From positions 1,922,001-1,986,000 of the forward strand of contig ML978126.1 of the NCBI GenBank assembly GCA_010015805.1: a DNA stretch of 64,000 bases, read 5' to 3'. Positions within the stretch are counted from its first letter, which is position 1, and each line of letters begins with the position of its first letter. Origin of the DNA: Rhizodiscina lignyota (taxonomy: Eukaryota). Shown in pieces: positions 8,902 through 62,238 of this stretch. The notes beneath the pieces were generated by a model. The model was not told the origin of the DNA, ran no database searches, and worked only from the letters and a program-made list of their open reading frames with translations. The position numbers were made by a program, and so were the translations under genes.

Positions 8902-10849
8902 CTAAATAACATACCCAGCGGAAGCAGCTTGCCTTGGCTCTCCAGCAGCCTCAAAGGTCCCGTTTGGCAACATCCGGAGCGCCTGCACACTACTCAACCC
9001 AGGTCCCACGCGCGTGATGTTGTGGCCCTTTTCTTCCAGGAATTCAACAGTAGAGTTGTCATAGTCGTATTCCAGAAACATCAGATTCGGAATAAGCTGA
9101 TCATGTAGTCGCGGCTCCGCCAGTGCATCTCGCAGCGTGTATCCTTTCAGGTGCGGAGCGCGGTCAAGGACATGCCAGATGTTCATGATAGTAGACGTGA
9201 TGATTCGACTTCCCCCTGCAGCGCCTATGTTCAGGTACAGCGAGCCATTACTCAGATGATCGACAATGATCGGAGTAATGGATGACATGGGCCGCTTTCC
9301 CCCCCGAATGTAATTCGATGGCGATGGTGCATAGCCAAACTCGTTCTGCACATGCGGAATGCTGAAGTCGTTCATCTCATCGTTCATGATAATGCCGGTC
9401 TCCGGGACCAATACCATATTGCCGAAGATAAGATTGATTGTTGTCGTTAGTGATATGGACAGCCCTGACGCATCCGAAACGACCACGTGGCTAGTGCCGT
9501 GGTCATTGAGCGGCTCAATGCCGTCCGGATTGTAAGCAGAGACGTCCAGCGTGTGTGCATCAGATATCTTGGCACGAAGAAGAGTCGCGGTTTCAGGCTT
9601 GAGCATTTCGGCCTCATAGGCTGTGACGTTGGGCAGAAACGTCGGGTCTCCTAGACTAGTGCGCTGTCCTTGCGCAAAGCGGATTGCTTCATCAAAACGG
9701 TGCGTGGAGATGTTGAGTGCTGCGGGATGGCCGGCGTCGCTGAAACCTTCAAAGATCTTCATTGCACTCAGGGCAACACCACCGCCAGCAGGAGAGCCGC
9801 ATGAGGTCAGTTTGAAGTCGCGATACGTTATGCTGACTGGCTCTCTGATCTCGACTTTGTAATCTGCCAGGTCTTGCATAGTCATGGTACCGTTAGCAGC
9901 TTGTGTCGCCGCAACCATTGTCTCCGCAATGGGCCCGGTGTAAAAAGCATCTGCTCCATGCTCTGCAATCGTCTCCAGTGTATCCGCATATCGTTTCCGC
10001 GTGATCGTTTCATTAAGTTGCAGTCTTTTCCCATTGGGTGCAAAATCAATTGCCCAATTCGGATCGGCAGAAAGAAAGCCACCGTCTGTTGGACTCATAA
10101 AGTCCATGAATCGCACTAGGTCTCCTGAGACCGGGAATCCATATCGTGATACATAAACGGCAGGCATGACGACGTCTCTCCATGGCAACGATCCATATTT
10201 ATTATGCAGGTACTCCAATCCTCGGAGCTCTCCAGGAACGGCTGACGCCAGTCCGGTCCATATTGATCCATTTATATTATCTTTGTACATGTCTTCGTAC
10301 GCGGCGGCCGGCGCTGCTTCTCGGAAGTCGATATGCTCGTATGTACCGTTGGCGCTCCTGACGAGCATGAATCTAGCGAGCACGCGACAGTTAGCAAGGA
10401 TGTCGCAATCGCACGCAATCGTCCAAGATAAGAGAGTGCCGCAAAGTCCATATTCTTTCATTTATAGCCAGCATGTTCTTGCAGAAGAGATTCTCGACGT
10501 ACCCTCCGCCTCCAAGCCCACTGTGGTACATTCCTATCGTCCCGACACAGAGCACTGTCCCGACGAGTGCGTCCGCTGCATTGCCACCCGCCTTCAGCAG
10601 ATCGATGCCAATGTTCGTACAGATTGAATTCTCTGAAGCAACAGCGCCGAGTTTGCCAGCTTCATGCTGTCCGCCATCCGCGCTATATGATGCACGATGT
10701 GGTCCTGAGAGTGCAACTTGAGTCCCCAGCGCCGCAGTGAGGAAGTGAGATGCGTGTCGAATGCCTTCCACGACCCTCTGCTTGAGAGGAAGCCATGAGG
10801 GTGAGAGGTCGGCAGTATGGCGACTGAAGGTAGACAGATGAGGCGCCAT
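8902..10849 (-). CDS. Gamma-glutamyltranspeptidase; 2 exons
   Basis: GAVASE...GGNAADA...SGLGGGG, intron 10373-10502, FMLVR...IDFREAAP, autocleavage site HGTSHVVV, GIIMNDEMNDFS, KRPMSS, GAAGGSRI. Start codon uncertain. Confidence 0.92.
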
Positions 10850-41574: not shown

Positions 41575-42504
41575 CGCGTAATTAGATCATTCGTTTCCTG
41601 AAGAGTAAGAGACCGAGCGCATGTCTCAAGTAATGCGCCCGACAGCGTGCACGCGAACCGTTTCGCATCTTCGGACGGGCATTCTTCGCCCCTTTTAAAC
41701 AAGCATTTTGAGGCTCAAATCCAAGCATTTATTGGCAAAGGTTGAGGCCGCCGGCCGCGACCAGGTGCGGCCTCGAGATGCATGATGGCGTTCAGCTGGT
41801 TGCTGTCTTTAGCGAATCTCGCCCTCGGTCGCCCTTTTTGACATGGGGATCGTCTGCAGCCAGGCTTGTTGGAGTTAACCTCTTCCGTCTCCGCACGGAT
41901 CGCTTCGATCATTGGGAGGGCGGGAAACGAATCGCGTTGGCCGAGGCAACTGAAGCGCAAGCTGCGTGAGTCGAGAAAAGGCAACTGAAAAGTTCGTCTG
42001 CCTTCCGAGGAATAATAAGAAGATGAAAAGGGGCGGGGGAGTGTGGCGTCCCCTGTTATCGTCGGCACGATGTTCGGGCCGGTCCTGAGTCCCAGCCCCC
42101 TTGCGGCTCTGCGGCTCCTTATTAGGCGCTCTCTGACCCTAACCCTCACACCCTGAATATTAAGGTCACCCCATGAAGGTGTGCTGCGCAACTCTCTTGG
42201 AATGGTTTCGTCTCTTTTTCTTTGGGCTGAAGGAACACACGAGCGTCGCGATGGAGGCAGGACAGAAAAGCGTTCCGCTAACCACGCCTTGATACTTTCA
42301 GCTTGCGGATACTCTAACGCATTTCGGGCGGTCCAGCAAGGCTCAGAGCCTCAGCCCTCGTTAGTTCCGACCAGTGAGAGGAGTCTGTCTTAGGCCTCCG
42401 ATTTAGCGGTTAAGCAGGTAAACCGATTAAAACTTTCAACTCCGTTGCTTTGATATTTGCAGTACTCTCAAGCGTTCTCTGAAGCATACTCTTCTCCATC
42501 AACT

Positions 42505-43986
42505 ATGGCAGCGTTCTCTTCAAACGGCAACCCAAGCTTCGGTTCTCTCAATTTGGCTCCGTTCTTCGAACTCCCTGCTCTTCCAAATATCGTCGCAGAG
42601 TGGGCAGCCATTATTCCATTGGTCTGCCATCTGGCCAGCTACAGACGAGACTACAGAACGTTGGGAGACGTCGCGCTTCTTGGTTGTATCAGCCTCAGCC
42701 TGTTCCCCAAGTTGGGCACTTTGGCTGGTCTCAGTCGTTTGTTACGTCGAGGCCCCGAATTTTTCGATGAGGCCAGTACACGAGGCGGCGCCACATGCAC
42801 AGTGTGGGACGTACGTTGGGGTAGTGTTTTTCCCTGCGCAAACGGCGCTGCTTGCGAGTTCGTGAAGGACTTTTTCCGGCGTCGCAGGTCTACGCCAGCC
42901 GTAACAATGCCAGAGTCTGTACAAGAAGCTGGTTCTAAAAGCCGTCCAATGTCGTGCCCAATAGAAAAGAGTCCGGATGAAAAGGGCACCCTGAGAACTC
43001 AAGCAAGCGAAACACTGCAGGCTTCAGAGAGAGCTCGAGCCCACCAGGAAATCCATGCCGGAGAGGAGTCCCAAGAAGCCACAAAAATATGTACAAGCAG
43101 TAGTTCGGACTCAGCAACGCGGCATGGAAATTGTGTCTTTCGACGATATCAGACTCTCCACGTTCTGCGAGCTCGGTTCACTACCAAGCGCAAGCGCTCT
43201 ATGTTCGACGGTGCCCGCCGTACAATCAATTTCGTAGGAATCGCGGCCATGCCTATTCTCTCAATTCTCCTGGTTTCGGTTCTCGCCATGTGTGGCGCTT
43301 ATGGGACAGCGGTTATTGTCCTTTGCAGCATGATCTCTCAAATTGCAGCTAAAAACACCATCATCCGACGGCCTCCTGGGTACCTTCAGTCTAATGAATC
43401 ATGTGAAGATGCATGTATGCTTATGGCACCGCACCAGAATGCTCAAGAGTGGACTTTGTTCATCGGAGACCGCGGCATAGTGGATACTCTGCTCAACAAA
43501 CCAATGATCATGGTCCAGGATTGCAGAGCAAACTCAGTAGCCGCAGCGTGGTTCACTGCAGCTAACCTCTTACAGCTTCTGGCTATGACATTTGTTGCCG
43601 GTCAGAAGGGGTGGGACGGTGTCTGCCTTGTGATACTCATGACAGCTGAATTTGCTTTTCAGTGGCGTACTCAGAGCATCAGGCTAGCGAAGGCATGGGT
43701 AGCTGAAGCTGGAATCGATGCACAGGTCAATTCGTTTCAATTTGGCAGCCGAATGATCATGTTGGGGGCTATTGAAAAATTCCTTGGTTGCAAGAGAACA
43801 GTTTGGATGGACCAAATTATTCCACCCCATCCCAGACGCGAGGCTTGGCTCTGTAATCTTTTCGAGGAGCCGTTTGATGAAGCTAGCTTCATACCGTCTG
43901 ACATTGCCTGGATAAAGTTGAGCGGTGCCTTGGCCACTCTCTCGGCCAACATATTACAAAGAACCACGATGGCCGACGAGGTTTGA
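42505..43986 (+). CDS. Uncharacterised multi-pass membrane protein
   Basis: Long intronless ORF (first ATG at 42505) with several hydrophobic segments (IAAMPILSILLVSVLAMCGAYGTAVIVLC; AAAWFTAANLLQLLAMTFVAG; GVCLVILMTAEFAF). Confidence 0.8.
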   Translation: MAAFSSNGNPSFGSLNLAPFFELPALPNIVAEWAAIIPLVCHLASYRRDYRTLGDVALLGCISLSLFPKLGTLAGLSRLLRRGPEFFDEASTRGGATCTVWDVRWGSVFPCANGAACEFVKDFFRRRRSTPAVTMPESVQEAGSKSRPMSCPIEKSPDEKGTLRTQASETLQASERARAHQEIHAGEESQEATKICTSSSSDSATRHGNCVFRRYQTLHVLRARFTTKRKRSMFDGARRTINFVGIAAMPILSILLVSVLAMCGAYGTAVIVLCSMISQIAAKNTIIRRPPGYLQSNESCEDACMLMAPHQNAQEWTLFIGDRGIVDTLLNKPMIMVQDCRANSVAAAWFTAANLLQLLAMTFVAGQKGWDGVCLVILMTAEFAFQWRTQSIRLAKAWVAEAGIDAQVNSFQFGSRMIMLGAIEKFLGCKRTVWMDQIIPPHPRREAWLCNLFEEPFDEASFIPSDIAWIKLSGALATLSANILQRTTMADEV

Positions 43987-44050
43987 CGGTGTCTGGAGAT
44001 TCCTTCACCTGAGAACAATGATGAGAGCGATACATGTCACACAATGCCGC

Positions 44051-46630
44051 CTACACGATCAGCATCTCACCTCCTTCGAAAAATGAAATATTTTCATCAA
44101 CCCATTTAAAGACACCTAACCAATGCCAGGAGCGTCCTTGGTCCTTACTAGCGGTTATTGCTGCAACCGCACCAGTATAGTCCCCACGATCGTCTCCGCC
44201 AATGTACAGAGACCGGCCGTCGTCAGCTGCTGGCTTCAATACGCGGACACGAGCGTCTCCTAAAATCTCAGCGATCGTTTCAAAAGCCAGAGCAGCATCA
44301 GGAAAACCATAAACCTCTGCGTCTTCTGGAATATCTTGCCCTGTATCGGGAGCCTGGCCGAATTTAATATCCCATTCCGCGGGGTAACGCTCACAAAGAC
44401 GCTCTCGGTACTCTTCCAAAAGACTGGCATCGAACTCTGTGTACATCCAAACACTCAGGAGGCCACTGTCCGTAATGCGACCCTCGTAGCTTCCGTATCC
44501 ATCGTAACTATGGTATCGGGCGGTGTAAGCTTGTTCGATTTCATCGCATCGTATGTGTCGAGCTTGTGGCAAAATCGTTGGAGTCGACGGAGCCCAGCCA
44601 AAGCCTCGAGCATTCTGAATTCTAGGCGCGCTGGACATCAAGTATGCCGTTTTCACGGTCCTTTGGTCTTTCCAAAGGTTGAGAACATCACCCAGATTCT
44701 TGGAATTGTTCAACAATCCCCAAATTATGACATCATCACCAGGTCTTGAGGCATGTCGCTGACTCAAGATATATCCTGCCTCTTCTGCCGTCTTGCGTTG
44801 CGTTTCGTCGAGCGTCGGAATCAAATGCCCTGCGCTGCCTATGAGTGTCGCCAATGATATCGAACCATCCTCCCAGACACGGCGGGTGAGGTCCACGAGT
44901 GATATCGTCTCATCTCCCTTGCACAAAATATGTACAGCTTGGTTACCTCGTGTGGCTTCAAGCATTGTCCAAGCGCGAACATTCCAGTCACAAACCAAGA
45001 GCACCGACAAGACTGTCTCAAGGCTGCCAATATCACCATTCGCCAGATCTACAGATTGCACGTCCTGGTCGCTAACCAAAACGGCTTTGCTGGTAGCGAA
45101 AATCGTGTTGATCTTCGCAATCGCTTCTTTCCGCAGTCTGTCGTCTGTAGGAATGCATGTGGAGTCGATCCAGTACGAGTCACATTCATGCTTTGTAGCC
45201 AGGTCGGAATAACGTGCGTGAAGGCAGCGGTTTATACCGTCTTCAGGTCTTCCACCTTGTCCATGGGCCCAGACGTGCGATATTGCAAGAGTCTGCTCTG
45301 AAGCAACACAGTATTGCAGGTCCTTTTTGCTGCTGTCAACACGCACGGCGCGGGGGCTCTCCACCTTGAGATACGATGCTTCATTCCAGAAAATCCTGCC
45401 ACAGGTTGAATCGCAAGATGGGATGTGGGCCGATTGTGCCAATGTTTCTGCCCCGGTGAACCGCTGGCAAGAACTCGGATCATCGCCCAGGCATGATTTG
45501 CTCGACGATTTGCTACAGCGGCCCGGGCGATCGCCGAAATGGCTCGTAAATCTCTCCAATAGACAGCGGAAATCCAGGCCGATGGCGGTTCTACTCCGTC
45601 GCAGCAGTTCTAAAGCCCAATTGCAGAGATATTGGGAGGTGCTAGCGCCTCGATAATCAATATCCATAAGACGAGAGTCACTGAGTTCCTCGAGCCTTCC
45701 TACACCGCGTACAGCAACTAAGTCATTCCAATCCGCTGAAGAACCATGATGGAGTTGCGCGCCGACTATACCGTACAAGTGCAACATCGTGGAACGCTGC
45801 CACGCGCCCCATAAGAAGGTTCTGACTACATTCAGTCTCTGCGGGTCATTAATCGGAACATCCCCTTCGGGAAAATATATTGTAGAATGCGGTAGCTCGC
45901 CTGTCGTATGACAGAAAGCGATGTAGTCAGTGAAGATTTCGAATTCGTTTAACAGTTGCGCAAGGGTGTCCACGTATTTGTAGGTCGCATACGAAAATTC
46001 CGGACTGAGTTGGGTTTTTTGTGAAGCGAGCATGACCAGCAGTGCAACTGAATTGTCGTCTATGTGATTTGTGACGATAAGATCGCCCCATATGTCCTGC
46101 GTCGTGTATTTCAGCATCTCCAACTCTGACTCTGACAGTGCCTCAGAGTTAGACATCTGGCTGTTAGATGAAAGCTTGTGGCGAGCATCATCGATAAGCC
46201 ACTCTGGAGACCATTGAGCTCTTCTCATTCTTTGCGCTATCGTATCTGTCTGTGCTTGTGGATTTCGCCCTGCAATACGGAAAGCGAGCAGTTTCATGGG
46301 AGTGGGAGGTAGTCGACGTAATATGTGTGATGCTCTCTGAAAGACTGTCTTCTCTAGATTCTCTCCGTCCATACAACTCGATCCTCCAAGCATCAAATTA
46401 GGAAGCAAACTGGAGAGTCGTTTGTTGAGCTGGACCAGATGCTCCGTAGGGTTCGAGATCGCCTGGAACAGCTGGACACACAGTGGAGCTAGCTGCTCAT
46501 GCCTTTGAATCTCATCAACTTCACTAGCCATTGGGCAGTGTAGACCCGATCCCCAGTCTTCGTTAACGCGCCTCACGATTGTGTTCAGAGAAAGGCGAGG
46601 TTTTGGCGATGATTGCGTTGATAGATCCAT
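44051..46630 (-). CDS. Divergent HET-domain protein with a long N-terminal extension and a Cys-rich segment (HET2)
   Basis: LAISHVWAHGQGG, YWIDSTCIP, AIAKINTIFATSKAVLV, DWNVRAWTMLE, SQRHASRPGD, GFGWAP. Confidence 0.85.
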   Translation of the reverse strand: MDLSTQSSPKPRLSLNTIVRRVNEDWGSGLHCPMASEVDEIQRHEQLAPLCVQLFQAISNPTEHLVQLNKRLSSLLPNLMLGGSSCMDGENLEKTVFQRASHILRRLPPTPMKLLAFRIAGRNPQAQTDTIAQRMRRAQWSPEWLIDDARHKLSSNSQMSNSEALSESELEMLKYTTQDIWGDLIVTNHIDDNSVALLVMLASQKTQLSPEFSYATYKYVDTLAQLLNEFEIFTDYIAFCHTTGELPHSTIYFPEGDVPINDPQRLNVVRTFLWGAWQRSTMLHLYGIVGAQLHHGSSADWNDLVAVRGVGRLEELSDSRLMDIDYRGASTSQYLCNWALELLRRSRTAIGLDFRCLLERFTSHFGDRPGRCSKSSSKSCLGDDPSSCQRFTGAETLAQSAHIPSCDSTCGRIFWNEASYLKVESPRAVRVDSSKKDLQYCVASEQTLAISHVWAHGQGGRPEDGINRCLHARYSDLATKHECDSYWIDSTCIPTDDRLRKEAIAKINTIFATSKAVLVSDQDVQSVDLANGDIGSLETVLSVLLVCDWNVRAWTMLEATRGNQAVHILCKGDETISLVDLTRRVWEDGSISLATLIGSAGHLIPTLDETQRKTAEEAGYILSQRHASRPGDDVIIWGLLNNSKNLGDVLNLWKDQRTVKTAYLMSSAPRIQNARGFGWAPSTPTILPQARHIRCDEIEQAYTARYHSYDGYGSYEGRITDSGLLSVWMYTEFDASLLEEYRERLCERYPAEWDIKFGQAPDTGQDIPEDAEVYGFPDAALAFETIAEILGDARVRVLKPAADDGRSLYIGGDDRGDYTGAVAAITASKDQGRSWHWLGVFKWVDENISFFEGGEMLIV

Positions 46631-47141
46631 CGTATGCCGAAGGAATTTGGAGAGAGCTACTGTTGGCGGCTGCGAAGGAAGTGTGATGCGCTTTTGACTT
46701 CTCGACTTAGTTTGCTAATGATTGGCAACATAACTAAGTACAGTAGTGTTGTCAGCCTTGCTCCCAACAGGAAGCGCGGGCACAAGGCTGACGCACCTGA
46801 AGATTCGTGAGGTTCATAACCACTCACTGATGCCTGGAGCTGCAGCACAAGGGCGACACGAAGACCGAGAGTTTGCCGACAAGCTGCCGATAGCATTTTG
46901 TATCGATAGAGTATGCTTATACTCTGATCGAACTAAAATTGATTGCTGGAGAAATTTAAGGTAAGATACAAGCCTCAGAAAAATGACGTTTCTGATCTAT
47001 GCGCAAAACTGAATAGCACCGATGGACCAGCTACGAACGCCTGTTGGATTGACCGCTTTTCCATATCGCCATTCTAATAAATCCAGATACGCCCCTTCTC
47101 ACACGATTACGCTCGCATTCCATATAGTGTTCTAATCAGCA

Positions 47142-48788
47142 TCAAGGTATGCTCTCCTCGCTGCCCCTCACTTTACTCTCATTCTCGCTCGACTCCTCAC
47201 TGCCCCTCACTTTACCCTCTTTATCGCTTCCCTCCTCTCTGGCTTCCACATTCTTTACCCCGTGGTGCCAACGCAGGATCTTCGGACGATTTGGCACGAT
47301 CAGCTGCCGGATCTTGATGTTCGCGACGTGCATTACGGCTGCGGCGTGTCTAGGGCCCGGCACACCGTCTGGAAAGATGATATACAGCCCAGATTGCAGT
47401 GACGTGTCTGGCCGGAACTTGTCATGGTATGCCTTCTTTCCACCAACGGGGAGGGCGCGGAATGTACGCTGGTAGGCTGAACGGGAAAGGCTGGAAACAA
47501 ATTTTGGCATGCCGACTATCTCACCGAGGTTGGGCATTGGCTCATAGCCCAGGCTGAGATAGGAGATGCCCGCGCGGTTGAGGAGGGCCATGGCGGAGAA
47601 GATGAGGAGGTCGGTAACACCTCGCGGAGCGTCATGGGTGGCGATACAAGGGTCGATATGGAAACCGCTGTTGGCACCGAGTTTTCTGAGTGCGGCGAAC
47701 CCGTTGGGCCTGCCATCCGGACCTCTAGTGTAGATGTAGATCATCAGTTCAGGGAGAGCAAAGGGGTTGTAGACGGTGATAAAGGCCTGGAGCTTGCCGT
47801 TGTACTGGCGGTTCCGCTCTTCGCGCCAAGTTTCGTAGATATCCATCAGCTGTTTTTGCAGGATGGGGTTTGTTCCAGTGGCGGGACTGTACACTTCGAC
47901 GCTGATGTTTCCTTTGTTAGGATCGAGAAGCTGCTTGTTCTGGCTGATTATGCGCTTGCCTGCGCTCTCGAAAAGGACGGGATTTGTCGCCGGATTGAGA
48001 ACGCATTCCTCCCCGAAGTGCATCGTGACCCATCCTTGCTCCCGGGCGAAGCTCGCGAGCTGTCCACTGGCCCCTAAGAATGCGATGCCCAATCCTTTCT
48101 TCTTTCGATACCTCTTGAATTCTTCCAAGACTGCCGGATATTCGTCAGGGCGGCAGAGTGGATCCCCGCCGACGACAGCGATTTTGTTCTCGACCTTGAA
48201 GTAGAGTGCCGCATCCATGGTACTACTAAGGAAGAAACTGTAGCTCTGATCCAATATTCCCATGTGTGATACTCGCCCATAGCGCTCAATGAGCGACTCT
48301 AGAGCAGCCATGGCGGCGAAATCACCTAGTGAGAAGATATTGTTGCCCCTCTTCCACTTTGGAACTGGACTTGAGCGCGTATAGTTAGGGGAAGAGACGT
48401 GTATATGGGAACCCGTGAAATGGAGTAGGGTTTGAGGGTTTGGGCGAACTGTTTCCGAACTTCCCGTAGTGGTTCCCGGGCTTCCCGTAGTGGTCCCAGA
48501 GCTCCCCATAGTGGTCCCCGAACTTCCCATAGTTGTAGTCATCGAAGCTGAGCTTGACAGCGTTGTCGACCACTGTGTAACGATCAAATGCCGCGCTAAA
48601 TCGAGGGGGTCCGGAACGTTCTGAAAGGTGTAAAGGAGCGCATCTGCCATGTTGTTTCCCACGCGCTGGAACAAATACTCGCGAGCTGTAGATTGGGTAC
48701 ATTTAGCTTCCAACTGTCTCTTCGTCTCTTCTCCTCCCGCATCTGCCCTGGGGCCGTTTATCCTTGCATTCTTGGGTTTTCGAGCCAT
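47142..48788 (-). CDS. Stand-alone DUF2156 (MprF/LPG-synthase C-terminal-like) tRNA-dependent aminoacyltransferase, ErgS-like
   Basis: RYGRVSHMGILD, AVVGGDPLC, FGEECVLNP, GFAALR, APRGVTDLL, YLSLGYEP, KKAYHDKFRPD; no synthetase domain fused. Confidence 0.8.
   Translation of the reverse strand: MARKPKNARINGPRADAGGEETKRQLEAKCTQSTAREYLFQRVGNNMADALLYTFQNVPDPLDLARHLIVTQWSTTLSSSASMTTTMGSSGTTMGSSGTTTGSPGTTTGSSETVRPNPQTLLHFTGSHIHVSSPNYTRSSPVPKWKRGNNIFSLGDFAAMAALESLIERYGRVSHMGILDQSYSFFLSSTMDAALYFKVENKIAVVGGDPLCRPDEYPAVLEEFKRYRKKKGLGIAFLGASGQLASFAREQGWVTMHFGEECVLNPATNPVLFESAGKRIISQNKQLLDPNKGNISVEVYSPATGTNPILQKQLMDIYETWREERNRQYNGKLQAFITVYNPFALPELMIYIYTRGPDGRPNGFAALRKLGANSGFHIDPCIATHDAPRGVTDLLIFSAMALLNRAGISYLSLGYEPMPNLGEIVGMPKFVSSLSRSAYQRTFRALPVGGKKAYHDKFRPDTSLQSGLYIIFPDGVPGPRHAAAVMHVANIKIRQLIVPNRPKILRWHHGVKNVEAREEGSDKEGKVRGSEESSENESKVRGSEESIP
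48457..48540 (-). repeat. In-frame 21-bp tandem repeat (about 4 copies) encoding TT(M/T)GS(S/P)G
   Basis: Protein reads TTMGSSGTTMGSSGTTTGSPGTTTGSSE; DNA units such as gaacttcccgtagtggttccc. Confidence 0.85.
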
Positions 48789-49439
48789 TTCAGTCCTGTT
48801 TCCACTGGAAAATACTAGTTATGGAAAGGCAAGCCTGATGTGCAGAAGAGTGCGTATGACAAAAAGGAGTAATGTTTGAAGTGCCCAGGCGGAACGAACA
48901 GAGAGCGACCATCATTTAAAGAAATTGGAAGAGAAATAAAACCACAAAGTTGCTTGCAAAGCATTGTACACGTAGAGATTGCGCCTCAGTCCGCGATATT
49001 CGCTATGAAGATGCGTCAGACCACCTACTCTGCTCCCAAGTTGGCCTTTGTGCCTTCGCGTCACTTCCCCTATTTGGCTGAGCATGCGATCTCCGCCATG
49101 CTGATTACGACATGCCCTCGTCAGAAGCACGTGACTTGCTCTACAGGAGGAAGCCCGCGGTATCTCGTCCGGCATTGTGGGAATCGAGGTGGAATTGACG
49201 CTTGAACACCTGTCTGTGTACTCTGTAAGGGAGAGAAAATACAGAGTTTTGCACCCTGGCCGCGTGGCACTCTTGCACTGCCAAGACGCTATTCCAAGTT
49301 TGGATAATATACCACAGCCGAGGCAGCTAAGCCCACTTCACAGACAGGATACTATGCAGACCCGAATAATGCAACCCGATCGAGCTCGACATTTGTCCAG
49401 CCTCACTAGGATCTTGTGGTGCTTGTTTGAACGCGCATC

Positions 49440-49820
49440 GTCATCGTATCATCTCAAGCTCGTACCAATTCGCAATTGAGTGCTTTCGCATCATACCCCA
49501 ATCTCATACCAGTCGCAGCTCGGACTTTACATGTCAAACGCAGCTCGTGTTACTCGTCGCTCACTTCCGTTGGTCACTTACATATCATTCGCTGGCTCGT
49601 AACGACCCGCAATTAGCATTCACGTACCATTTCTTATGTTTCTCGTTCTCGTCCATAGCTCATACCATTTCCTAGCACCCGTTTATTCCATATCATCTCT
49701 AAGCTCACACTCATCCTTAGTTTAGGAGCTGCGGATCATTACGAGCTATGAAATCGCATGGACTGAGGAACAATGCGTAATAGCGAATAGTACGCACTGC
49801 AGACGAATACGAGCTGGAGA
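49440..49820. repeat. Degenerate direct and inverted repeat array (AGCTCGTA core)
   Basis: gctcgtaacgacccgca (49595-49611) is inverted at 49730-49746 (15/17 match); core at 49457 and 49542, inverted at 49808; tatcatctc(t)aagctc occurs twice. Confidence 0.5.
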
Positions 49821-49907
49821 ATAATACGGAAAGGCTCAACAACGGAGTGATACCTCGGAGACGGTTTCTATCCTCTGGGTTTGCATTTTTCTTTGTTGAA
49901 GTTTTAC

Positions 49908-52042
49908 CTAAATGATTCTAATTCTCCGAAAACTTAACGCATCATCCCAATTCGCACTTTCTTGAACACACGCAAAATAATCCTCGATGTAGAAATACCC
50001 AGCTCGTTTGTAGACGCCACCTGCCGCAGACTCCAGTACTAGGCCTTTTATTTCATGATTGAAGCCTGGAGTATGTAAGGCAGACAACTCAAGAAGCCAG
50101 TATTCGTGACAAGAAGTCCTTCGGCTCCCCGACCAGAGCCCTCCATCTCCAGACCCCGCCGATCGGAAACAAGCAGGAAGCGCCGCTCCAGCGTCTAGGT
50201 ATATTGCAGTAGACGAACACTCGTCATCACCCTTCTGTCGGTGCATCTCTGCTAATTCACCGCAGTCGACCCTCCGAACCGGCGCATAGAGCTCCAAGAA
50301 TCCACTCTTGATAGCGCACAAAGGAGCCTTATTAGATACTGGGACAATCTCCACAGATTGAACCTCCGCTCTTGTGTCGTGCTGCATAGTGGAGTTGTGA
50401 AAGTCAACAGGCCCGTCGACGCTAGCCCATGACCAGCTCGGGGCACGATATTGTGCTGGACGGCCGAGTGGTACAGAGGCTTTGTAAAGGGACCACCGGC
50501 TACCCTGGCACCAGAGCAAGCTTGGTATTAGATTGCTTTTCCAGATCCCAGCGAGGTACATGTCCTTCGCATAGAAAGCAAGCTCTGTCGCTATCGCAGA
50601 TATTGAGGGGAGCTTGTCCTGTCCCACTGTCAGATGCCGTGATGTGACTTCATGCACTATATCGGCCCAGCGTAGGTGTGCCATCTGCCGTGTTTGATGA
50701 AGTGTATCGTCATCCCTTGGCTCATCATCGGTGGCATCTGTCTCGGATATCGTGGAGTTTCTGATGGGTCCGATGGTGCCATACACAGCTGAGAGCCTCT
50801 CCCAAGGAGCGCAGTGTCCATCAGCAGAAGTGCCCGAGATGCAGCGCCAGAGCGTCTGACTGGAGCTGAATATTATGGAGCGGGGAGAGAGCAAAGATTC
50901 CTGGAAAGTCCATGCGCGAAAGTCAATTGGTTCCTTCGGACTGCTTTCGCGGCGCATCTCTGCTAGAAAGATGTCATCTAAGTAGCCATCTGGGCAGCGA
51001 AAGGACAGCTTAAAGGCTCGCTTCATCCACGAGATGACAAGGTCGTTGTCGTGGAGAAATCCATCTTGACACGTCCGCGATCGGGCGGCGGAGAGAGTGA
51101 CTGCCGCGTTTTTGTAGATTCCACTCATGTTCCCAATCTCGGTATATTTATCGTTGCTGTCATCTTGAATAATGCAGAGAGCGTCGACCCACAAGTACCG
51201 AATGCCTAACTGTTTCGTAAACAATATTGCATCTCGTATGGACTTTGCTAAGGCCTCTAGCTTTATCTGCCTGCAATTCGCAGAATAATTCATTGACGTT
51301 GTCATGAATTGTGACGAACCCCAGCAGTAGCTTAAAGCCGCATAGGATCCTGACCTTCCCATCGTCTCGAGAAGTTTGATGTTGGTGAGGTTGTTTAGGT
51401 TGTTTGAGTCCAAGTCAAGAACCCGAGTCGGCAGTGGAGCAGCTGACAGCTTAGGGCATCTCTCATGTTTCTCGGAACATTTTGCGATCCAGGATCGAGC
51501 AGTACGAACAGTATTACTAGACGCTGGAAACGGGTTGGCTGGCGAGGATTCGACGTATTGCGACAGTTTGGAGCCTGCCATGCTCAGGCCAAATGAGATT
51601 GAGCACAGCTATAATGACAGCAAATGGAAATGATAGAGAGTACTGACTCACCGGGGAGCGCAAATGCGTTGAAGTACGTCAGCTGGGTCGTCCTCTTGTC
51701 GTGGTGCTCAACGAGGAACTGGGCTGTAATGCTGCCTCTGAATTGTTGGAAGATCCTTGCGCCCCAGTCAAGTTGGAGCTTTATCGACGCAGATGAATCA
51801 GAGATGTCAGACTCTGACAGCTTGCTAGCGAGCTGGGCCGCAAAGCCGCAGGCCCGGATGTCGTTCAGCTTGGATACGCTGCATAGTGGTGTCCCTTTCC
51901 CCAATTGAATGTCCCATCGCTCATCCAAATTTTGAAAGACTGTACAGATCGGGCATACATTGCAACAGGTGGACTCAATACCAGCGATGTTAAAGTCAGC
52001 ATCATGGAATGTCGAAAGCGGCAATTTGCGAAAATCTTGCAT
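49908..52042 (-). CDS. HET-domain protein (pin-c/tol-like type); 2 exons (HET3)
   Basis: WIAKCSEKHERC, LPTRVLD, YAALSYCWG, YLWVDALCIIQDD, RAWTFQESLLSPR, DKLPSISAIA, YRAPSWSWASVDG. Intron 51575-51651 joins the upstream exon in frame. Confidence 0.92.
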
Positions 52043-52595
52043 GGCTTCAAGACTTCGTGGAACTGGCGTTTACGGGTGTGGAGAGGTGAAGTCCAACATT
52101 TGAGCTGTCATCGTATAGCAGAGACATTGATGCTATCTCGGACATGAGCATGTCAACGTAAGAAAGGAGGGCAAAAGCATTTCTGGCTGGAAAGCTACTG
52201 ATGTTAAGCGTGAGCGTACGTGAGGTTCGAACGGCAGTTCAGGGGAACGCTAAACCCCGATCCTTGCCGGTGTTCGGCTTCTCCCACAGTGCCATTCGTG
52301 AGCCGAGCGCCGACTTCACCCCTGCATGTGGCGCAGCCGCAAGGGCCAAAACCATTTTGGTGGTGACACGAACTGGCAAGCACACCCACTTACTCCATCG
52401 CTCTCTACACTTGCCGCGTCAAACTCTGTCCTCTGGAACATTGCCAAATGGCTGCCTGCGATTCTGAAGAACTTGCGAGTTGGCTCGCCGAAAGAGATCG
52501 CAGGTGCGGGCAGGTAAGCCACCGTAAACATGTCGCGACATCGACGCGTTTTGTTCCCTCGACCACCAGTCAAATCTTGACCACAACCACGCGCA

Positions 52596-55409
52596 ATGAA
52601 CGCGTCAGTTCTTGATTTTTGGCTCGGCCATGTCATCCTTTTGTACGCAAGTACATTGATTGCTGGTATCTACGATGCGATCATTGTCACCGCTGTCGAA
52701 TTGCCCATCAGCTATCTTCTCGGCGACTACTCCAACAAGAGCTCGTTCATTATCCGAAAACTCGGGGGTTTGCTGCTTATCTGGTGGTGGTGTCATCCGT
52801 GTGCCGGTGCAGCCGATATCCTCGCAGACTTCTCGAAATGGGCGTCTCATGATGCTCCCAATGGACCGCCCGTGGCTACCAAAACCTCGATTGCGCATGC
52901 AACAGTCTTCTTCGTCTCGGCCATATGGACAGCACTGGATTGGCAACATTTTCTACGTACGATGATCTGCATGTTTAAACCAATTAGCCACCAATTTGTA
53001 ATTGCTGTCACCGGTATGCTGTTGCCCCAAACAGCAATCCTTGAGCATGGAACAGCTACTGCATATTGGATCTGCGGAATGGCACCATATTCCACGTGCT
53101 GGGGAGCCCTAGCCTACATCGCGGCCTTGCGGTATAGATCTCCATATGTACTGGATGTCTACTTCCTGGTGTGTTTCATACTCGACATTACTTGGTCTCG
53201 CACGAGCATTCGGAGTCGCACAATCGGAAGATTTTGCATCGTTATGCCATGGAGCATCATGAAAGCGTTGATTACTCTACCTTTTGCGAATATTTGGGTG
53301 TTTAGGCAGTCGCTCAAAGCATTGTATTGGCAGGCACGACATCTCGTCAGGCAAAAATGGCTCTCCAGCCATCATAAGCAATCCAAACGAAGAATGAGAG
53401 AAGACTTCAAATACAGACCTCTCCAACCCGGCCAAATACGCCTCTTGGAGGTGATGCGAAACCCGAGAAATCTCGAAATAGAATGCAGGCTGCGGCACGT
53501 TCATCTATCAAAGGCTAGCGAGTACGACGCGATTTCTTATACCTGGGGAGCAGAGTCTCCAACGCACGGTGTTGATGTCGATGGTCAATGGATCAAAGTC
53601 AGAACGAATGCATACGAGCTACTTCAAGACCGGGCAGTCATCAACGAGACGAGGGTCATCTGGATGGACTGTCTGTGTATTAATCAAAGAGATCATGACG
53701 AAAAGAGATTGCAGATTCCTATGATGCCCAGGATCTACCGAAAAGCCAAGCGAACAATCATATGGCTGGGTAATATCAAATACGCTGAGCAATGTCTGTC
53801 GTTGTTTCGAGATCTGGTAGACCGTCCTTGGGATTTCTATGCCCCGGAAGAGATACCGGAGGCAGTGAAAGCTCCCCCGAAGTGGCAAAAGAAAAGGCCG
53901 ATTCGTTTCTCTATGGTGGAAGGACTTGACCTCCGATTTCGGGCACTGGCGAGGATCTTAGAGCATGCCTGGTTCTGTCGAATCTAGGTGCTTCAAGAAG
54001 TTATCTTCTCCGACACAATCCACATCCGTGCTGATGGAGTCTGGATAGACTGGGAACTCTTCACTTCTACCATGAAGCTGTTTTCTGACCCAGAGCCGTA
54101 TATGCTCTGTGGTCGAGAGACACTGTATCTTAACATGAAGGATATCAAAGTTCTGGCCAAGATCTTTCTGTTAACACAGGCGAAAGATGTCGAGCGAGCT
54201 CGGTTTCTGAACAGTCGACCGAGGCCGAAGCTGGTCAATCTCCTCTCGAACCTCTGGATCGCAGAGTCGTCCGATGCTCGAGACGTGATTTACGGCCTGC
54301 TGAACCTTTGCTCTGACGGCAGAGATGAATGTCTAGTTCTAGATTATCGCAATGAATCGACCACCGAGTCTCTCTATATCAAGTATGGAGAACTTTGCGT
54401 GCAACGAAATGAAATCCAGGAAATCTTGTACCTGGCAGGAATTGGGTATCCCCGAAAGCTGTCCATTCCCTCTTGGAGTCCAGACTGGACCTCAATTCCG
54501 ACGGTGCCGACACTCCGAAAGAGGCATTACAATGCGTCCGGTGAAAATCAAGGCAATTTCATGCTCGTTTCATCGACAATGCTTTCTGTCAGCGCGGTAT
54601 TGGTCGACAATATCATACAGATCGCGGACAAAGCTTTTACATCGGCCAATTTCACCTACAGGAGTCTACCTAATATGTCTACACTTGCGCAGAGTCGGAT
54701 AGAAGTTGACTCGCAGAACATGGCGAAGTCTTTACCCGACGAGTATGACGGTGGTAAGCATCATGGCTTGCAATCCCGCGACGAAGCATTCTGGCGAACG
54801 CTCATTGGAGACACGGAAGCCCTTTCCTCGCGCACACATTCTAGGACCGACTGCACAACACCAACGATACAATCTCCGTACAACTTCGAACTGAGATATG
54901 AACGTCCGGCGTCGCCAGAATATGGCAGACTCTTCAACACTGAATGTGCGCTTCGAGATCAGCGCCTTTCCAGCCTAACACCCAAGTCAAATCCGGCGAA
55001 GAGCAAGAGTCTCTGGGCCAGAGCTCAATGCGAGTCTAAAGAGGATCCTGATCTCGTGGCCGCTTGGAGACGCGGGTACCAGAAGGTGCCCGATAACCCA
55101 GCAGTGATTCTAGACAGCGACATGCGGTTTACGGATGCTTTTGTCACCTGTGCCAGTGGCCGGAAGTTTGCCATAACGGAGAATCCAGTCACCGGAAGAA
55201 AGCGAATGGCGCTGGTTCCACCTGAAGCGCAGGTCGGAGACAATGTCTATGTTATTCATGGTATGGAGGTACCGTTTGTGATGAGGCGCTCGACGAATCC
55301 TTTCCCCGAGTATTGGCTCAAGATGGTTGGCGAGTGCTTTGTACATGGAATTATGGATGGCGAAGCAGTGCACAACGGGGCGGTTACAGAGCTGATATAC
55401 GTCTACTGA
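52596..55409 (+). CDS. Membrane-anchored HET-domain protein interrupted by one in-frame TAG at 53985-53987 (HET4); edited/readthrough gene or pseudogene
   Basis: ORFs 52596-53987 and 53988-55409 are contiguous and in the same frame: YDAISYTWG, IWMDCLCINQRD, WFCRI*VLQE, DARDVIYGLL, PSWSPDW, VGECFVHGIMDGEA. N-terminus is hydrophobic; an upstream exon (52326-52503) is possible. Confidence 0.88.
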
Positions 55410-55700
55410 ACGACTTACAAGGTACGCCTCTGTTTACCGACTTTTGATCCAAGAAGCACCAGGAGGTTGTAAATACATGTCTCCGCTGACGTAACGTATG
55501 CGGTGTTCAGTCGACAAACGTTATTGCTTGGCAGATGTCTTGTTCTCAAAACCGCCATGTTCCATGGCTTCTCTCTTCAAAGCCTACACGCATCTTTCAG
55601 TGAACGCAATTGGAACTGCAATATCAAGTTGAAAGTTCCGCAGGCCATTAAAATGATTTGATCAATGCTGGCATTGCAATTTACAGTGTCCATATCCCTC

Positions 55701-56027
55701 CTAGTCCGCAACAACGACTTGATACGAGCTCCAAGGCCCTCCAACTAAACAAACAGTGTCTCCAAAAACCTCGCACGCGTCTTCGTCGCTACAGCCAGCG
55801 GATGCTGGTGGAGTACACAGCGTCACGAACGCTTCTTGATTATCAGGAAAGAATTCGAATGCGGTAGCCGCCGTGTCCGTGATTGCCGTGCAAGGGGTTG
55901 TGTCGGATCCTGTGATTGTGATGCCACCGCTAATGCACTCGGACCCAGGGGGATAGAGAGTTAAGCTCCAGCAATTGGACTTGGAGAAGAGCGCGAGAAG
56001 CGTGCAACAGAGAAGAGAGTATTTCAT
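55701..56027 (-). CDS. Small secreted Cys-rich protein (108 aa), effector-like
   Basis: Signal MKYSLLCCTLLALFSKSNC; acidic mature part with 6 Cys, ending WSSYQVVVAD. Confidence 0.75.
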   Translation of the reverse strand: MKYSLLCCTLLALFSKSNCWSLTLYPPGSECISGGITITGSDTTPCTAITDTAATAFEFFPDNQEAFVTLCTPPASAGCSDEDACEVFGDTVCLVGGPWSSYQVVVAD

Positions 56028-57206
56028 GTTGGATTGAGGCATTGAGCTTGTGAGACGTTGGAGAATATTTTGATTGAGATGTCTGTGTTTGGACGTCAAG
56101 CCTTTTTCAACTTTGAGGCGCTCGCTTCAAATTCACTCCGGATATTGCCTGATTTTATACCCATCGACAGCTCTCGTTCGTGCAAAGCTGATTGCGGACC
56201 ACGAGAATTTTGAAATTTCGATCTGACTGACAGCGCTGACATGATCAGATCTTCATAATTCCCATCAAAAGTTGACGTAGAACCCGGTTTAGATCCATTG
56301 CGGCCCCACGTTGGTGCGTAGATTGCCAAAGATTGGTTATTTCTTGAATGTACTCAATTTGGATTGTCTACATCCTGCAGATCTTCGCTGACACCAATTA
56401 TGTACCATATCAAACTGCAGAGCCGTATCCGCGCGGAATCTAGTGGGATTTCCTAGGCTGGGTAGTTGTGTGAGACCACAAGTGATAACAATTCCGGCGC
56501 CGTACGAGACGATTTTTGCAATTTCATGCATAAGCATCCTCGTAACGCTCCCCGCATTGAGACCCATCTCTAACTCGACGGTAACATTTTAGCGTTAAAG
56601 GCGGAGAATTATTAGAGCTCTAGCCTCTATCGAATTCGCTATAACCAAGAAGCTAATTATAACAGGCTGCTAGTTTAGATTTAAGCTCAAAATAGTTATC
56701 TATGTCTGTAGTAGAGAAGTAAATAATTACGTGACATTGCGTGTTTAATTTCCTTCTGGTCCTTTGTGTAATTGTGTGTTTGCCTTGCCTTTTTGTTTAT
56801 CGATCGAAGTGTTTCCGGAGAAACGTGAGGTCAGTAAGAACCTCGTATTACTCTAGTGCATAAACCAACAAGTGCGCGCCTAATAACTCTGTTTACAGCT
56901 ATTTGTTTAGTGAGGTTGTTTGGTATTTGACCTAGATTGCTTGGTAAACGTTCGGCCCGCTTACCACACTGAAGGTATGCGCCTGCGATGCCACCGAGCT
57001 TTGAATTTCCGGTTATTCTTAGATACATTGTCATGGAGAACATCCTTCTGCAAATATGTGTGAGACACGAGGATCTCCGTTCACGGAGCTGGAGTACTTA
57101 AGAAGCAACATTCCTTACCTTATATATAATGGTCAGACTAGTGCGGAAGAAATGCTTCAAGCCACCTCACCACAAGCCTTCTTAACTAGATTGCCACACT
57201 CTGAAA

Positions 57207-58722: not shown

Positions 58723-60625
58723 ATGTCGAAGGAGGTGACATTCAATGTCAGGAGCGAAGAGATGGGCGTGACGGCCAAGTGGCGGGGTACTGCTGGCGAT
58801 CAGCGCGATATGGAGAAGTTGCAGCTCGCTCAGCAAGTACGAGTGAGTGATTCTCATCAGATGGCTCTGGAATGGCCTCTCGTATAATGATTCTGTCTAG
58901 CGCAACTTCGGCCGGACGGCTATGTTTGGCTTTTCGTCGACGCTGATTTGCACGTGGGAAATCACTCTCGGGTGTGTTGATACTGTTCCGCTCCCATACT
59001 TCTCAGCATCCTGAAGCGCAAAGCACAACAGATCGTTGGGCCTCACTTTGATGAATGGAGGAACAGCTGGACTGTTCTGGAACTATGTCGTTGTGGTGAT
59101 TGGCTTCACATTCGTCTATCTCAGTATTGCTGAATTAGGTTCTATGTAAGTGATCCATGTAACTTTTGAACGTAGCTATAATGCCAGTTCTAATTTGTTC
59201 CCGCCAGTATCCCGACCGCAGGCGGACAATACTACTGGGTGTCAGTCTTGTCTCCTCCAAAATCTCAACGATATCTTAGCTACGTTACCGGTAAACCAAA
59301 ATCTCCAAACTTGGCAGCATCCTCACTGATCGGTATCTCCAGGTTGGCTTTGCGCGACCGCATGGCAGACAGGAATCTGCTCTAGCGCCTTCCTTGCGGG
59401 AACGATCATCCAAGGCCTCCTGATATTGAACAAACCCGACTACGTGCCACATCCTTACCAAGGTACTCTATTCGTGTGGATGATTGTCGCCGTCGCCATC
59501 TTCTTCAACACTGCCCTTGCCAAAAAGTTGCCTATATTCGAAATCCTGATTGTTCTGGTTCATCTCCTGGGTGCCCTGATCATCATTCCTCTCTGGGTAT
59601 TGGCCCCGCGGAACAGCGCACACAATGCACTTCTACAATTTACTAACGATGGCGGGTGGAGTACCACGGGCACTTCAACCATGGTCGGCATGCTCTCAGT
59701 TGTACTTTCCCTGCTAGGTCTGGATTGCTCAGTACATATGGGTGCGCTTCCAAACTGCAACTACAAACAGTATCTATTACTGACCTGTCGCAGCCGAGGA
59801 AATCAAAGACTCATCGATCAATCTGCCAATGGCACTGCTCATTGGTTTCGGCATCAACGGACTGTTGGGATTCCTCGTTGTGGTAACGGCTTGCTTCACC
59901 GTGGTAGACGTTGATGACATCTTGTCTTCGCCAACAGGATACCTATTCCTACAATACTTTTACAGCACTACCAAAAGCTTCGCTGGGACAAATGTAATGG
60001 CTGCGATCATGGTCATAAAATCTCACGGCCAGCTCGATCGCCGTACTTGCAACTGCCTCTTGGCAAATGTGGTCTTTCGCTCGTAACAAAGGAGTACCAT
60101 TTTCCTCGTGGCTTGCTCCAGTAAGCCGATGACCCACATATTACCTGAGAAAGTCGATCTAATACTGCACAGTCCAAACTCGCCCATGATGTCCCACTCA
60201 ACGCGCTCGGCGTATCTGTCGTAATCTCGATCCTGCTCTCGCTCATTAACATTGGCTCCACCGCTGCACTGAATGCCATCTTCTCCCTGAACACTGCGAG
60301 TCTCCTGACGTCATATATGATCACTATCGGGAGCATGCTACTGTGGCGCCTGCGAGGCAAGCCAATTCCGCGATCACGGTGGACTCTTGGCCGTTACGGT
60401 TTCGCTAACGTAGGAGCAATGTGCTATCTGTTGCCCGTGTTCGTCTTCAGCTTCTTCCCTTCCGTCACCCCGCCAACGCCCGAGACGATGAACTGGGGCG
60501 TCGTCATGTACTCAGGTGTCATAATCTTTTCGACAGTCTACTACATCCTCTATGGAAGGCATCATTACCAACCGCCGACGAGGGATGTAGGGTCCCGGCT
60601 TGTGATGGATAATTTAGATATCTAA
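58723..60625 (+). CDS. APC-family amino-acid (GABA/choline-type) permease, multi-exon, apparent +1 frameshift at 60017-60020
   Basis: DQRDMEKL, CTWE, MNGGTAGLFW, SIAELGSM|YPTAGGQYYWVS, DCSVHM|AEE, WSFARNKGVPFS, INIGSTAALNAI, TMNW. Confidence 0.85.
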
Positions 60626-60956: not shown

Positions 60957-61251
60957 GTGACCGAACGCGATGGATATCTACAACCCGAACGAACTCCTAT
61001 CCACATGCGACTGACGCAGCAATTCTAGTCTATCAACTAAGGGCTATCAAGACTTACTGTACAAGTCCCAATGAGTTGACTTTTATCCGCGTTCAGCCTC
61101 TTTGAGAATAATATTACTGACACTAAACGTAAACTCGAAGAGATATTTCTGTCTACAGTTTCCGATATTCAAGTAACTCTCATCGTCTATGATACCATGG
61201 GACTGTCACACTAACACAACATAGTCATTAACGAGAGGTTACAAATCTACA

Positions 61252-62238
61252 ATGGCCAACAAGCGCTTCCTCGTCGTGGGTGGAACGAGCTTAGTCGGAA
61301 GCCATCTCGCAGAGGTCCTCCTGCAGCGTGGGACTGACGAAGTCGTCCTCTTCGATAACTTCAGCTTGAGCAGCCCGGAAGTGATCCGCTCCTTGGAGGC
61401 GCGACCAGGCGTGCGTGTAGTACGAGGCGATGCTCTCAAGCTCGCTCAAGTTATTGATGCGATGCGGGATGTCGATGGTGTTTTCATGCTAGCCGCATTC
61501 CTAACGCTGCCGCTATCGCAAAATCCGCCTGCCGGTGCCGAAGTCAACGTTATGGGCTTGGTCAATGTGCTTGAAGCTGCGCGATTGCTAGGTGGCAAGA
61601 AGGTCGTGCTAGCCTCATCAATCGCAGTATATGGCACCAATATCGATGATGTGGTCGACGAATCTACCGCCTTTGGGTCGGCCGGACTGTCGCCAGCCTT
61701 CGGTGCATACGCGGCTTCGAAGCTCATGGGCGAGAACCTTGGAGGACTGTATGCGCAGAAGTATGCAGTCGAATTCTGCAGCGTGCGCTTCTCTACCGTC
61801 TACGGCGAGAATCAGCACAGTCGCGGCGTGAACGCGCTCTACATCCTCGAAGCCCTGAAAGATGTGTGTGCTGGTCGAGCGCCGCGCATTCGTGGCGATG
61901 GCACAGAAGCACACGACTACATCCACGCCGCCGATGCTGCACTTGGGATGGCAATGGCTATGGAGAAGGGCGGTGTAGGGGAGCGCTACAACTTGTCCAC
62001 CTTCCGCGCAACGTCAGTGAAGGAGATTGTCGACCTTGTGTTGAAAGAGTACGATAGCAGTCTCACACCAGAGACCGTCACCGATACGCGTGATGTGCGA
62101 TCCACACACCACGCGGACCTGCGCATATCGAATGAGAAGGCACGACGTGAACTCGGGTGGACACCAACTACATCGATCGCGGATGGCATTGGTCGACTGC
62201 GTCGCTGGATCGAATCAACTCAGAATGACAATAATTAG
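61252..62238 (+). CDS. NAD-dependent epimerase/dehydratase (extended SDR), intronless
   Basis: VVGGTSLVGSH, NVLEAAR, ASSIAVYG, YAASK (YxxxK), RFSTVYGE, GDGTEAHDYIHAAD, KARRELGW. Confidence 0.92.
   Translation: MANKRFLVVGGTSLVGSHLAEVLLQRGTDEVVLFDNFSLSSPEVIRSLEARPGVRVVRGDALKLAQVIDAMRDVDGVFMLAAFLTLPLSQNPPAGAEVNVMGLVNVLEAARLLGGKKVVLASSIAVYGTNIDDVVDESTAFGSAGLSPAFGAYAASKLMGENLGGLYAQKYAVEFCSVRFSTVYGENQHSRGVNALYILEALKDVCAGRAPRIRGDGTEAHDYIHAADAALGMAMAMEKGGVGERYNLSTFRATSVKEIVDLVLKEYDSSLTPETVTDTRDVRSTHHADLRISNEKARRELGWTPTTSIADGIGRLRRWIESTQNDNN

Follow-up and report, generated by a model that had tools for sequence, protein, structure and literature searches.

Within a 64,000-nt stretch of the Rhizodiscina lignyota genome (assembly GCA_010015805.1, contig ML978126.1, positions 1,922,001 to 1,986,000; hereafter the window, with coordinates counted from its first letter), a HET-domain gene on the forward strand is interrupted by a single in-frame TAG at the codon of an invariant tryptophan. 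We interpret this locus as probably a loss-of-function allele of recent origin, or a unitary pseudogene, of the HET-domain gene. In the proposed course of events, a single-exon gene encoding a hydrophobic, helical N-terminal region, then a HET/TIR-like domain and lastly a PF26639 domain at the C-terminal end would have been disabled by one G>A transition that turned the invariant Trp codon of its R-x-W-x-x-Q-E block into TAG. The event would be young, leaving either a strain- or species-level null or a unitary pseudogene at the onset of decay. Translation would stop after residue 463, and the resulting stub should not do the full protein's job because it lacks the Gln-Glu pair, the final third of the TIR-like core and all of the C-terminal domain; the mRNA, with ~1.4 kb 3' of the stop, would be a likely target of nonsense-mediated decay. 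We infer the null state, its recency, and a loss that was either neutral or favoured. HET genes are inducers of cell death, and losing them can relieve self-incompatibility.

The gene occupies a single frame, 52596..55409 on the forward strand, from an ATG at 52596 to a TGA at 55407-55409, with no intron needed (Table 1). Its sole in-frame stop is the TAG at 53985-53987 (the A being position 53986), codon 464 of 938, in the reading WFCRI*VLQE. Upstream of it lie 463 sense codons and downstream 473, for a read-through product of 937 residues with X at the stop; measured from stop to stop, the two open reading frames (ORFs) run from 52581 to 53987 (468 aa) and from 53988 to 55409 (473 aa). This is the anatomy that a first-pass annotation of the stretch had described. 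No other genuine case of two ORFs of at least 120 aa split by one stop occurs in the whole window. Two further one-stop pairs were rejected because they lie antisense to real genes, those for glycogen debranching enzyme and glycerol-3-phosphate dehydrogenase.

A database search with residues 260-937 returned 609 homologues, the best of which are 41-49% identical to the window protein over 99-100% of the query and are 916-972 aa long. The nearest relative is 49% identical, and the best named relative is from Elasticomyces elasticus; named relatives (E. elasticus, Endocarpon pusillum) are recorded as hypothetical or HET proteins, and the name 'heterokaryon incompatibility protein 6, OR allele' also occurs. 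The column of the TAG holds Trp in all 12 close homologues, in an alignment that is gap-free across the stop, and in 120 of 120 homologues in a 121-row alignment, where R462, Q467 and E468 are likewise present in 120 of 120. The stop sits three codons before the invariant Gln-Glu, and the HET blocks SYxWG, W-D-x-x-C-I-N-Q and R-x-W-x-x-Q-E are all present in the alignment save for the Trp of the last, which is the TAG. By these sequence comparisons, the single-stop pattern is far beyond chance, because the gap-free alignment to homologues continues through the stop and takes in both halves. The first-pass annotation had spoken of an otherwise intact HET gene with a stop at a conserved Trp, and had pointed to Trp at this position in other HET genes of the window; both statements stand, with WFSRRWVVQE in the gene at 38962-41586 aligning to the TAG motif and RAWTFQE at the same motif in the gene at 49908-51608. 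Because Trp is found in 120 of 120 homologues and has a single codon, the ancestral codon 464 was TGG, from which TAG is one G>A transition away, a change that reads as C>T at CpA on the complementary strand. An intron excising the TAG was considered and rejected, as the homologues align gap-free through WFCRI-X-VLQE.

The same alignments bear on the possibility that the locus holds two separate working genes, one for a membrane/HET stub of 463 aa and one for a C-terminal protein of 445 aa that begins at an internal Met. The existing gene call does split the locus in this way, into P0242 (463 aa) and P0243 (445 aa), and database proteins that consist of the C-terminal domain only exist (P0244, P0247 and P0249), of which P0247 and P0249 begin with Met while P0244 begins without one and looks like a fragment. 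Against such an arrangement, all 12 close relatives are continuous and gap-free over the junction, the stop falls inside one confidently modelled domain (see below), and P0243 would require its own promoter within coding sequence. A search for shorter proteins returned only the window's own two halves and fragments, with no C-terminal-only protein starting beside the Trp among its matches, and the database clusters of P0242 and P0243 each have one member from one contig. We regard two working genes as very improbable, and the two recorded gene calls as halves of one disabled gene, which is of direct value for annotation.

The domain content makes plain what the stop would remove. In the 937-residue read-through sequence with X at the stop, the Pfam HET domain (PF06985) matched residues 310-468 (E 2e-22; 80.5 bits, the cut-off being 22.5) and spanned profile positions 1-146 of 146; the 463-aa stub alone (P0242) scored 78.3 bits over profile positions 1-101 only. 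Residues 270-620 were modelled as one domain with high confidence (mean predicted local distance difference test score, pLDDT, 91.3; predicted template-modelling score, pTM, 0.89), in which the stop corresponds to model residue 195 and is directly followed by a helix (197-202) and strands (206-216). The stop removes this helix, the two strands and the following helices of the core, together with the entire PF26639 domain, a label that is the protein database's own for the C-terminal domain and is absent from the Pfam copy used. On this model it is reasonable to expect the product as encoded to be inactive, as the first-pass annotation had also expected of a product whose stop was left uncorrected.

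Ahead of the HET domain, residues 1-260 had no Pfam match and were modelled as helices only, at a pLDDT of 35-65, with Kyte-Doolittle segments of at least 1.6 at residues 12-34 and 213-231. About half of the close relatives have this region too, among them P0002, P0004, P0005, P0006, P0011 and P0014; the model and hydropathy suggest that the window gene may encode a HET protein anchored in the membrane.

A remote homology between HET and TIR domains, to which the first-pass annotation had appealed, is in print (PMC10890737), in an article that also describes the mode of action of HET domains as unknown. Comparison of the model with 48,161 solved chains by VIA-align gave a best Z of only 4.0, below the level that the tool regards as telling, and the 50 rows listed included 14 TIR, TIR-1, TIRAP or SARM1 entries, 4 ThsB entries and 7 nucleoside 2'-deoxyribosyltransferases, all weak at Z 3-4. 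The TIR superpositions covered ~100 aligned residues at a root-mean-square deviation of 3-4 A (Z 3-4), over model residues ~38-263, that is, protein residues 307-532. With the full model, Foldseek returned nothing from the PDB at E up to 0.001; a profile search against solved chains was likewise empty at E up to 10. This weak, TIR-led structure list agrees with the published HET-TIR homology, without proving it.

Table 1. Coordinates of the interrupted HET-domain gene, its parts, and the other HET-type genes of the window.
Feature	Position	Strand	Basis
HET-domain gene, whole frame	52596..55409	+	single TAG; gap-free alignment to 916-972 aa relatives
N-terminal hydrophobic helical region (~260 residues), putative membrane anchor	52596..53375	+	alignment, model, Kyte-Doolittle
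TIR-like alpha/beta core (predicted), residues ~307-532, cut by the stop at ~2/3 of its length	53514..54191	+	structure comparison, weak, fold-level
Pfam HET (PF06985), residues 310-468, crossing the TAG to the invariant Gln-Glu	53523..53999	+	E 2e-22
In-frame TAG replacing the invariant Trp, codon 464	53985..53987	+	W in 120/120 homologues
473 open codons: rest of HET fold and C-terminal PF26639 domain	53988..55406	+	ORF, homologues
CAA GAA, invariant Gln467-Glu468, just 3' of the stop	53994..53999	+	Q and E each in 120/120
HET gene	38962-41586	-	Pfam HET, E 1.5e-26
Sub-threshold HET match	44051-46714	-	21.6 bits against a cut-off of 22.5
HET gene, divergently transcribed from the studied gene	49908-51608	-	Pfam HET, E 1.4e-28

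Since one base decides the matter, a sequencing or assembly error, or damage by repeat-induced point mutation (RIP), had to be weighed, all the more as the complementary strand shows C>T at CpA, the classic RIP dinucleotide. One public sequencing run, with DNA-like contigs, contains this DNA, and no RNA run was listed among the run holders. The Logan contig of that run (24,210 nt, word depth 154) showed 0 differences from the window over 52400-55600, a comparison that represents the same sample rather than an independent strain, as the run may be the source of the window assembly. The first-pass annotation had asked that base 53986 be checked in reads, and the reads-based contig has identical letters there. 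An assembly slip is ruled out; a mutation acquired in culture could still give the TAG. The same annotation had cautioned that the change might be of RIP type, which is hardly borne out: the RIP indices of the gene (TpA/ApT 0.55, (CpA+TpG)/(ApC+GpT) 1.33) are as in the whole window (0.63 and 1.30), and with a GC content of ~0.50 it bears no mark of RIP. Its HET paralogues in the window share only 24-26% protein identity with it, and no repeats flank it, a scan of 47-61 kb having yielded a single 39-nt tandem pair, far from the gene. Error or RIP damage is, on these grounds, hardly credible as the origin of the stop.

We next considered how old the stop could be and by which route it arose. Of the positions conserved in the family, 54 of 57 before the stop and 81 of 91 after it are retained in the window gene, and intact relatives keep fractions of 0.66-0.95 of the conserved downstream positions. 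When neutral substitutions were simulated (transition/transversion ratio 2, no indels), the probability that all 473 downstream codons stay open was 0.59 at 1% divergence, 0.34 at 2%, 0.07 at 5% and 0.016 at 8%. Either the stop arose less than roughly 5% neutral divergence ago, or the downstream half has been maintained. Relaxed selection downstream of the stop had been named in the first-pass annotation as a test of its own reading; the downstream half does show no decay, as that reading expects, and yet the test fails to separate a gated gene from a recent null, because a recent null allele predicts the same intact half. As for the route, the gene has 30 other TGG codons, and TGG>TAG or TGA accounts for 60 of its 108 transition routes to a stop, while 9 of its 31 Trp positions reach a conservation of at least 90%. 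With TGG the commonest transition route to nonsense and 9 of 31 Trp conserved, a nonsense change at a conserved Trp is therefore unremarkable.

The reading that the first-pass annotation had favoured is a different one, a cell-death effector gated by editing. On this reading UAG would be edited to UIG, read as UGG (Trp), at a certain stage such as sexual development, and the genomic stop would shield vegetative cells from the effector. We consider an editing-gated effector of this kind unlikely and unsupported, although it has real precedents. As that annotation had stated, correction of UAG to UGG is in print for Fusarium (PMC10776026, PMC11156358), with 71 stop-corrected 'pseudogenes' in F. 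graminearum, mostly of TGG>TAG origin (PMC10776026), and for a Neurospora spore killer, rfk-1 of Sk-2 being an example of an edited stop codon. The window gene resembles such targets in having an in-frame UAG, preceded by U, at an invariant Trp of an otherwise flawless coding sequence. The letters preferred around F. graminearum editing sites are C or U at -2, U at -1, A or G at +1, G at +2, and A or G at both +3 and +4 (PMC9600606). The context here, C-U-A-G-G-U-G, agrees at five of these six positions (C at -2, U at -1, and G at +1, +2 and +4) and has the depleted U at +3, with the qualification that -1 U and +1 G are fixed by the TAG codon itself and that the consensus is from F. graminearum, a member of another class. 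Over 62% of F. graminearum editing sites lie in predicted hairpin loops (PMC9600606). At A 53986, no hairpin loop was predicted in any of three folds (41, 61 and 101 nt); in all three the A pairs with the U of an upstream CCUGG in a stem, though the folds were no better than those of shuffled sequences (z -1.15, -1.38 and -0.62, respectively). Together, these cis features are neutral to mildly unfavourable for editing.

The lineage of the host weighs further against editing. Best named matches of the window's glycogen debranching enzyme are Dothideomycetes at 64-71% identity (Coniosporium apollinis, Coniothyrium, Patellaria, Lojkania, Didymella and others; the top match overall reaches 82%), and by best named matches the window is judged to be that of a Dothideomycete, the lineage having been verified for three names, two of the debranching-enzyme matches and Elasticomyces elasticus. 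Sexual-stage adenosine-to-inosine (A-to-I) mRNA editing is documented only for Sordariomycetes, where it is common, and for the Pezizomycete Pyronema; Aspergillus nidulans and Botrytis cinerea were examined and none was found. The interaction of Ame1 with Tad3 that makes mRNA editing possible is reported to have arisen within Sordariomycetes, and a separate origin has been put forward for Pezizomycetes (PMC11087585, PMC11156358). In the accessible literature we found no report of mRNA editing in Dothideomycetes, a class that appears there only in comparative analyses. In favour of the idea, pseudothecium-forming fungi were still unexamined for editing as of a 2020 review (PMC7306014). By analogy with the lineages studied, editing in this fungus is a priori unlikely; a host lineage without demonstrated editing therefore lowers the idea without removing it. 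Similarly, the terms HET, Heterokaryon, PF06985 and incompatibility had 0 occurrences in one supplement of the 71-gene study (PMC10776026), and the portions of the literature at hand yielded no published link of HET genes to A-to-I stop correction.

Taken together, the Dothideomycete host, the A in a predicted stem, the failure to find RNA, a second strain or an orthologue, and an intact half that fits a null allele tell against editing as a gate, and the first-pass annotation's own caveats, that this may be an ordinary nonsense change and that the fungus may lack editing, carry most weight in the outcome. That a Dothideomycete uses stage-specific UAG->UGG editing to switch on a membrane-anchored HET/TIR-like cell-death protein we hold to be improbable. 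If it proved true, Dothideomycetes would gain their first reported case of mRNA editing, and the gene would be the first HET effector gated by stop-codon correction.

One further observation concerns recurrence of the stop. Searching the 463-aa stub against 1.84 billion representatives gave 39,402 matches (E up to 0.001), of which 150 were listed; the sequences of the 35 short ones (260 aa or less) were read, and the other 114 (the query's entry excluded) were judged by their lengths and ranges. P0280, a 122-aa protein on a metagenome contig of 5,586 nt, is 46% identical to residues 343-463 and ends exactly one residue before the same Trp, the sole such case among the 35 short matches read. 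By a rough estimate, ordinary nonsense would give ~0.2 such endings per 150 matches by chance. P0280 may have a stop at the same codon, which we treat as a lead and not as evidence; were editing real, a possible second stop at the same Trp would be a sign of recurrent design. Scans of metagenome contigs found no relatives of P0280 and none of the downstream half of the window gene. In a separate observation, similarity to three short HET proteins of the representative library (P0295, P0303 and P0316) is lost right after the invariant Trp, a pattern which, by sequence, suggests an intron directly after the Trp codon in some family members.

Full-length protein might also be made, in some amount, by translational read-through or suppression of the UAG. 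Any stop codon leaks slightly, and the frame past this one is intact. UAG-G-U-G is not known to be a leaky context, and near-cognate decoding of UAG gives Gln, Tyr or Lys, not Trp, so that the residue inserted would fall at a position where 120 of 120 homologues have Trp. TAG also terminates other Pfam-supported ORFs of the window, for example those at 49908-51608, 8902-10461 and 61225-62238. Read-through as the working state of the gene is extremely improbable.

Several points weigh against a young loss-of-function allele, and they overlap with those that lend the editing idea its interest. The gene has no other defect, which is also expected of a maintained, conditionally expressed gene; its stop is UAG, the editable one, in a Fusarium-type context at five of six positions, two of them given by the codon; P0280 ends before the same Trp and hints at recurrence, with ~0.2 expected by chance per 150 matches; and the collections searched held no close orthologue or second strain that could show TGG alleles. 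As it stands, a young loss-of-function allele would be an ordinary event, capturing a member of a large, fast-turning-over cell-death family just after its knock-out. If the stop were corrected in RNA, fungal mRNA editing would be extended to a new class and tied to the control of a cell-death domain.

The surroundings of the gene are of the same kind, with 38962-55409 forming a cluster of HET-type genes that are 24-26% identical to the studied one. Within and beside this cluster, a 510-aa ORF (42454-43986, +) and a 141-aa ORF (55701-56126, -) have no Pfam match, the latter with an internal Met and, just after it, hydrophobic residues that resemble a signal peptide. The two tandem 39-nt copies mentioned above (47154-47231, 82% alike) lie within an LPG_synthase_C ORF. 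Downstream of the HET gene, two ORF pieces at 59330-60625 (+) match AA_permease_2 and are probably exons of one gene. An Rfam scan of the window returned 0 families.

Compared with known systems, the window gene belongs with the HET + PF26639 genes of filamentous ascomycetes, with which it shares domain order and a full-length alignment (41-49% identity to the best). It keeps all of their invariant residues except the Trp that is now a stop, and its ~260-residue hydrophobic N-terminal extension is present in only some of them. TIR domains (SARM1, MyD88, ThsB, SpbK) and deoxyribosyltransferases head the structural list for its central domain, weakly (Z 3-4), and no solved chain matched the window protein in sequence (E up to 10). 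The stop-corrected 'pseudogenes' of Fusarium graminearum and Neurospora (PUK1, AMD1; Tad2-Tad3-Ame1) likewise carry one TGG-derived in-frame UAG with favourable neighbours in an intact gene. Unlike them, the window gene has its A in a predicted stem and a host in another class, outside those with documented editing, and it is a HET gene, a kind that was not found in one supplement covering the set of 71. The closest parallel to a young loss-of-function allele is offered by Podospora, in which cell-death/NLR genes, HET-bearing ones included (HNWD/NWD family and others), are pseudogenised and strain-polymorphic, disabled by stops in some strains and intact in others (PMC13449251). The Podospora cases are often RIP-marked and near transposons, whereas in the window gene one transition stands alone, free of RIP marks and of repeats around it.

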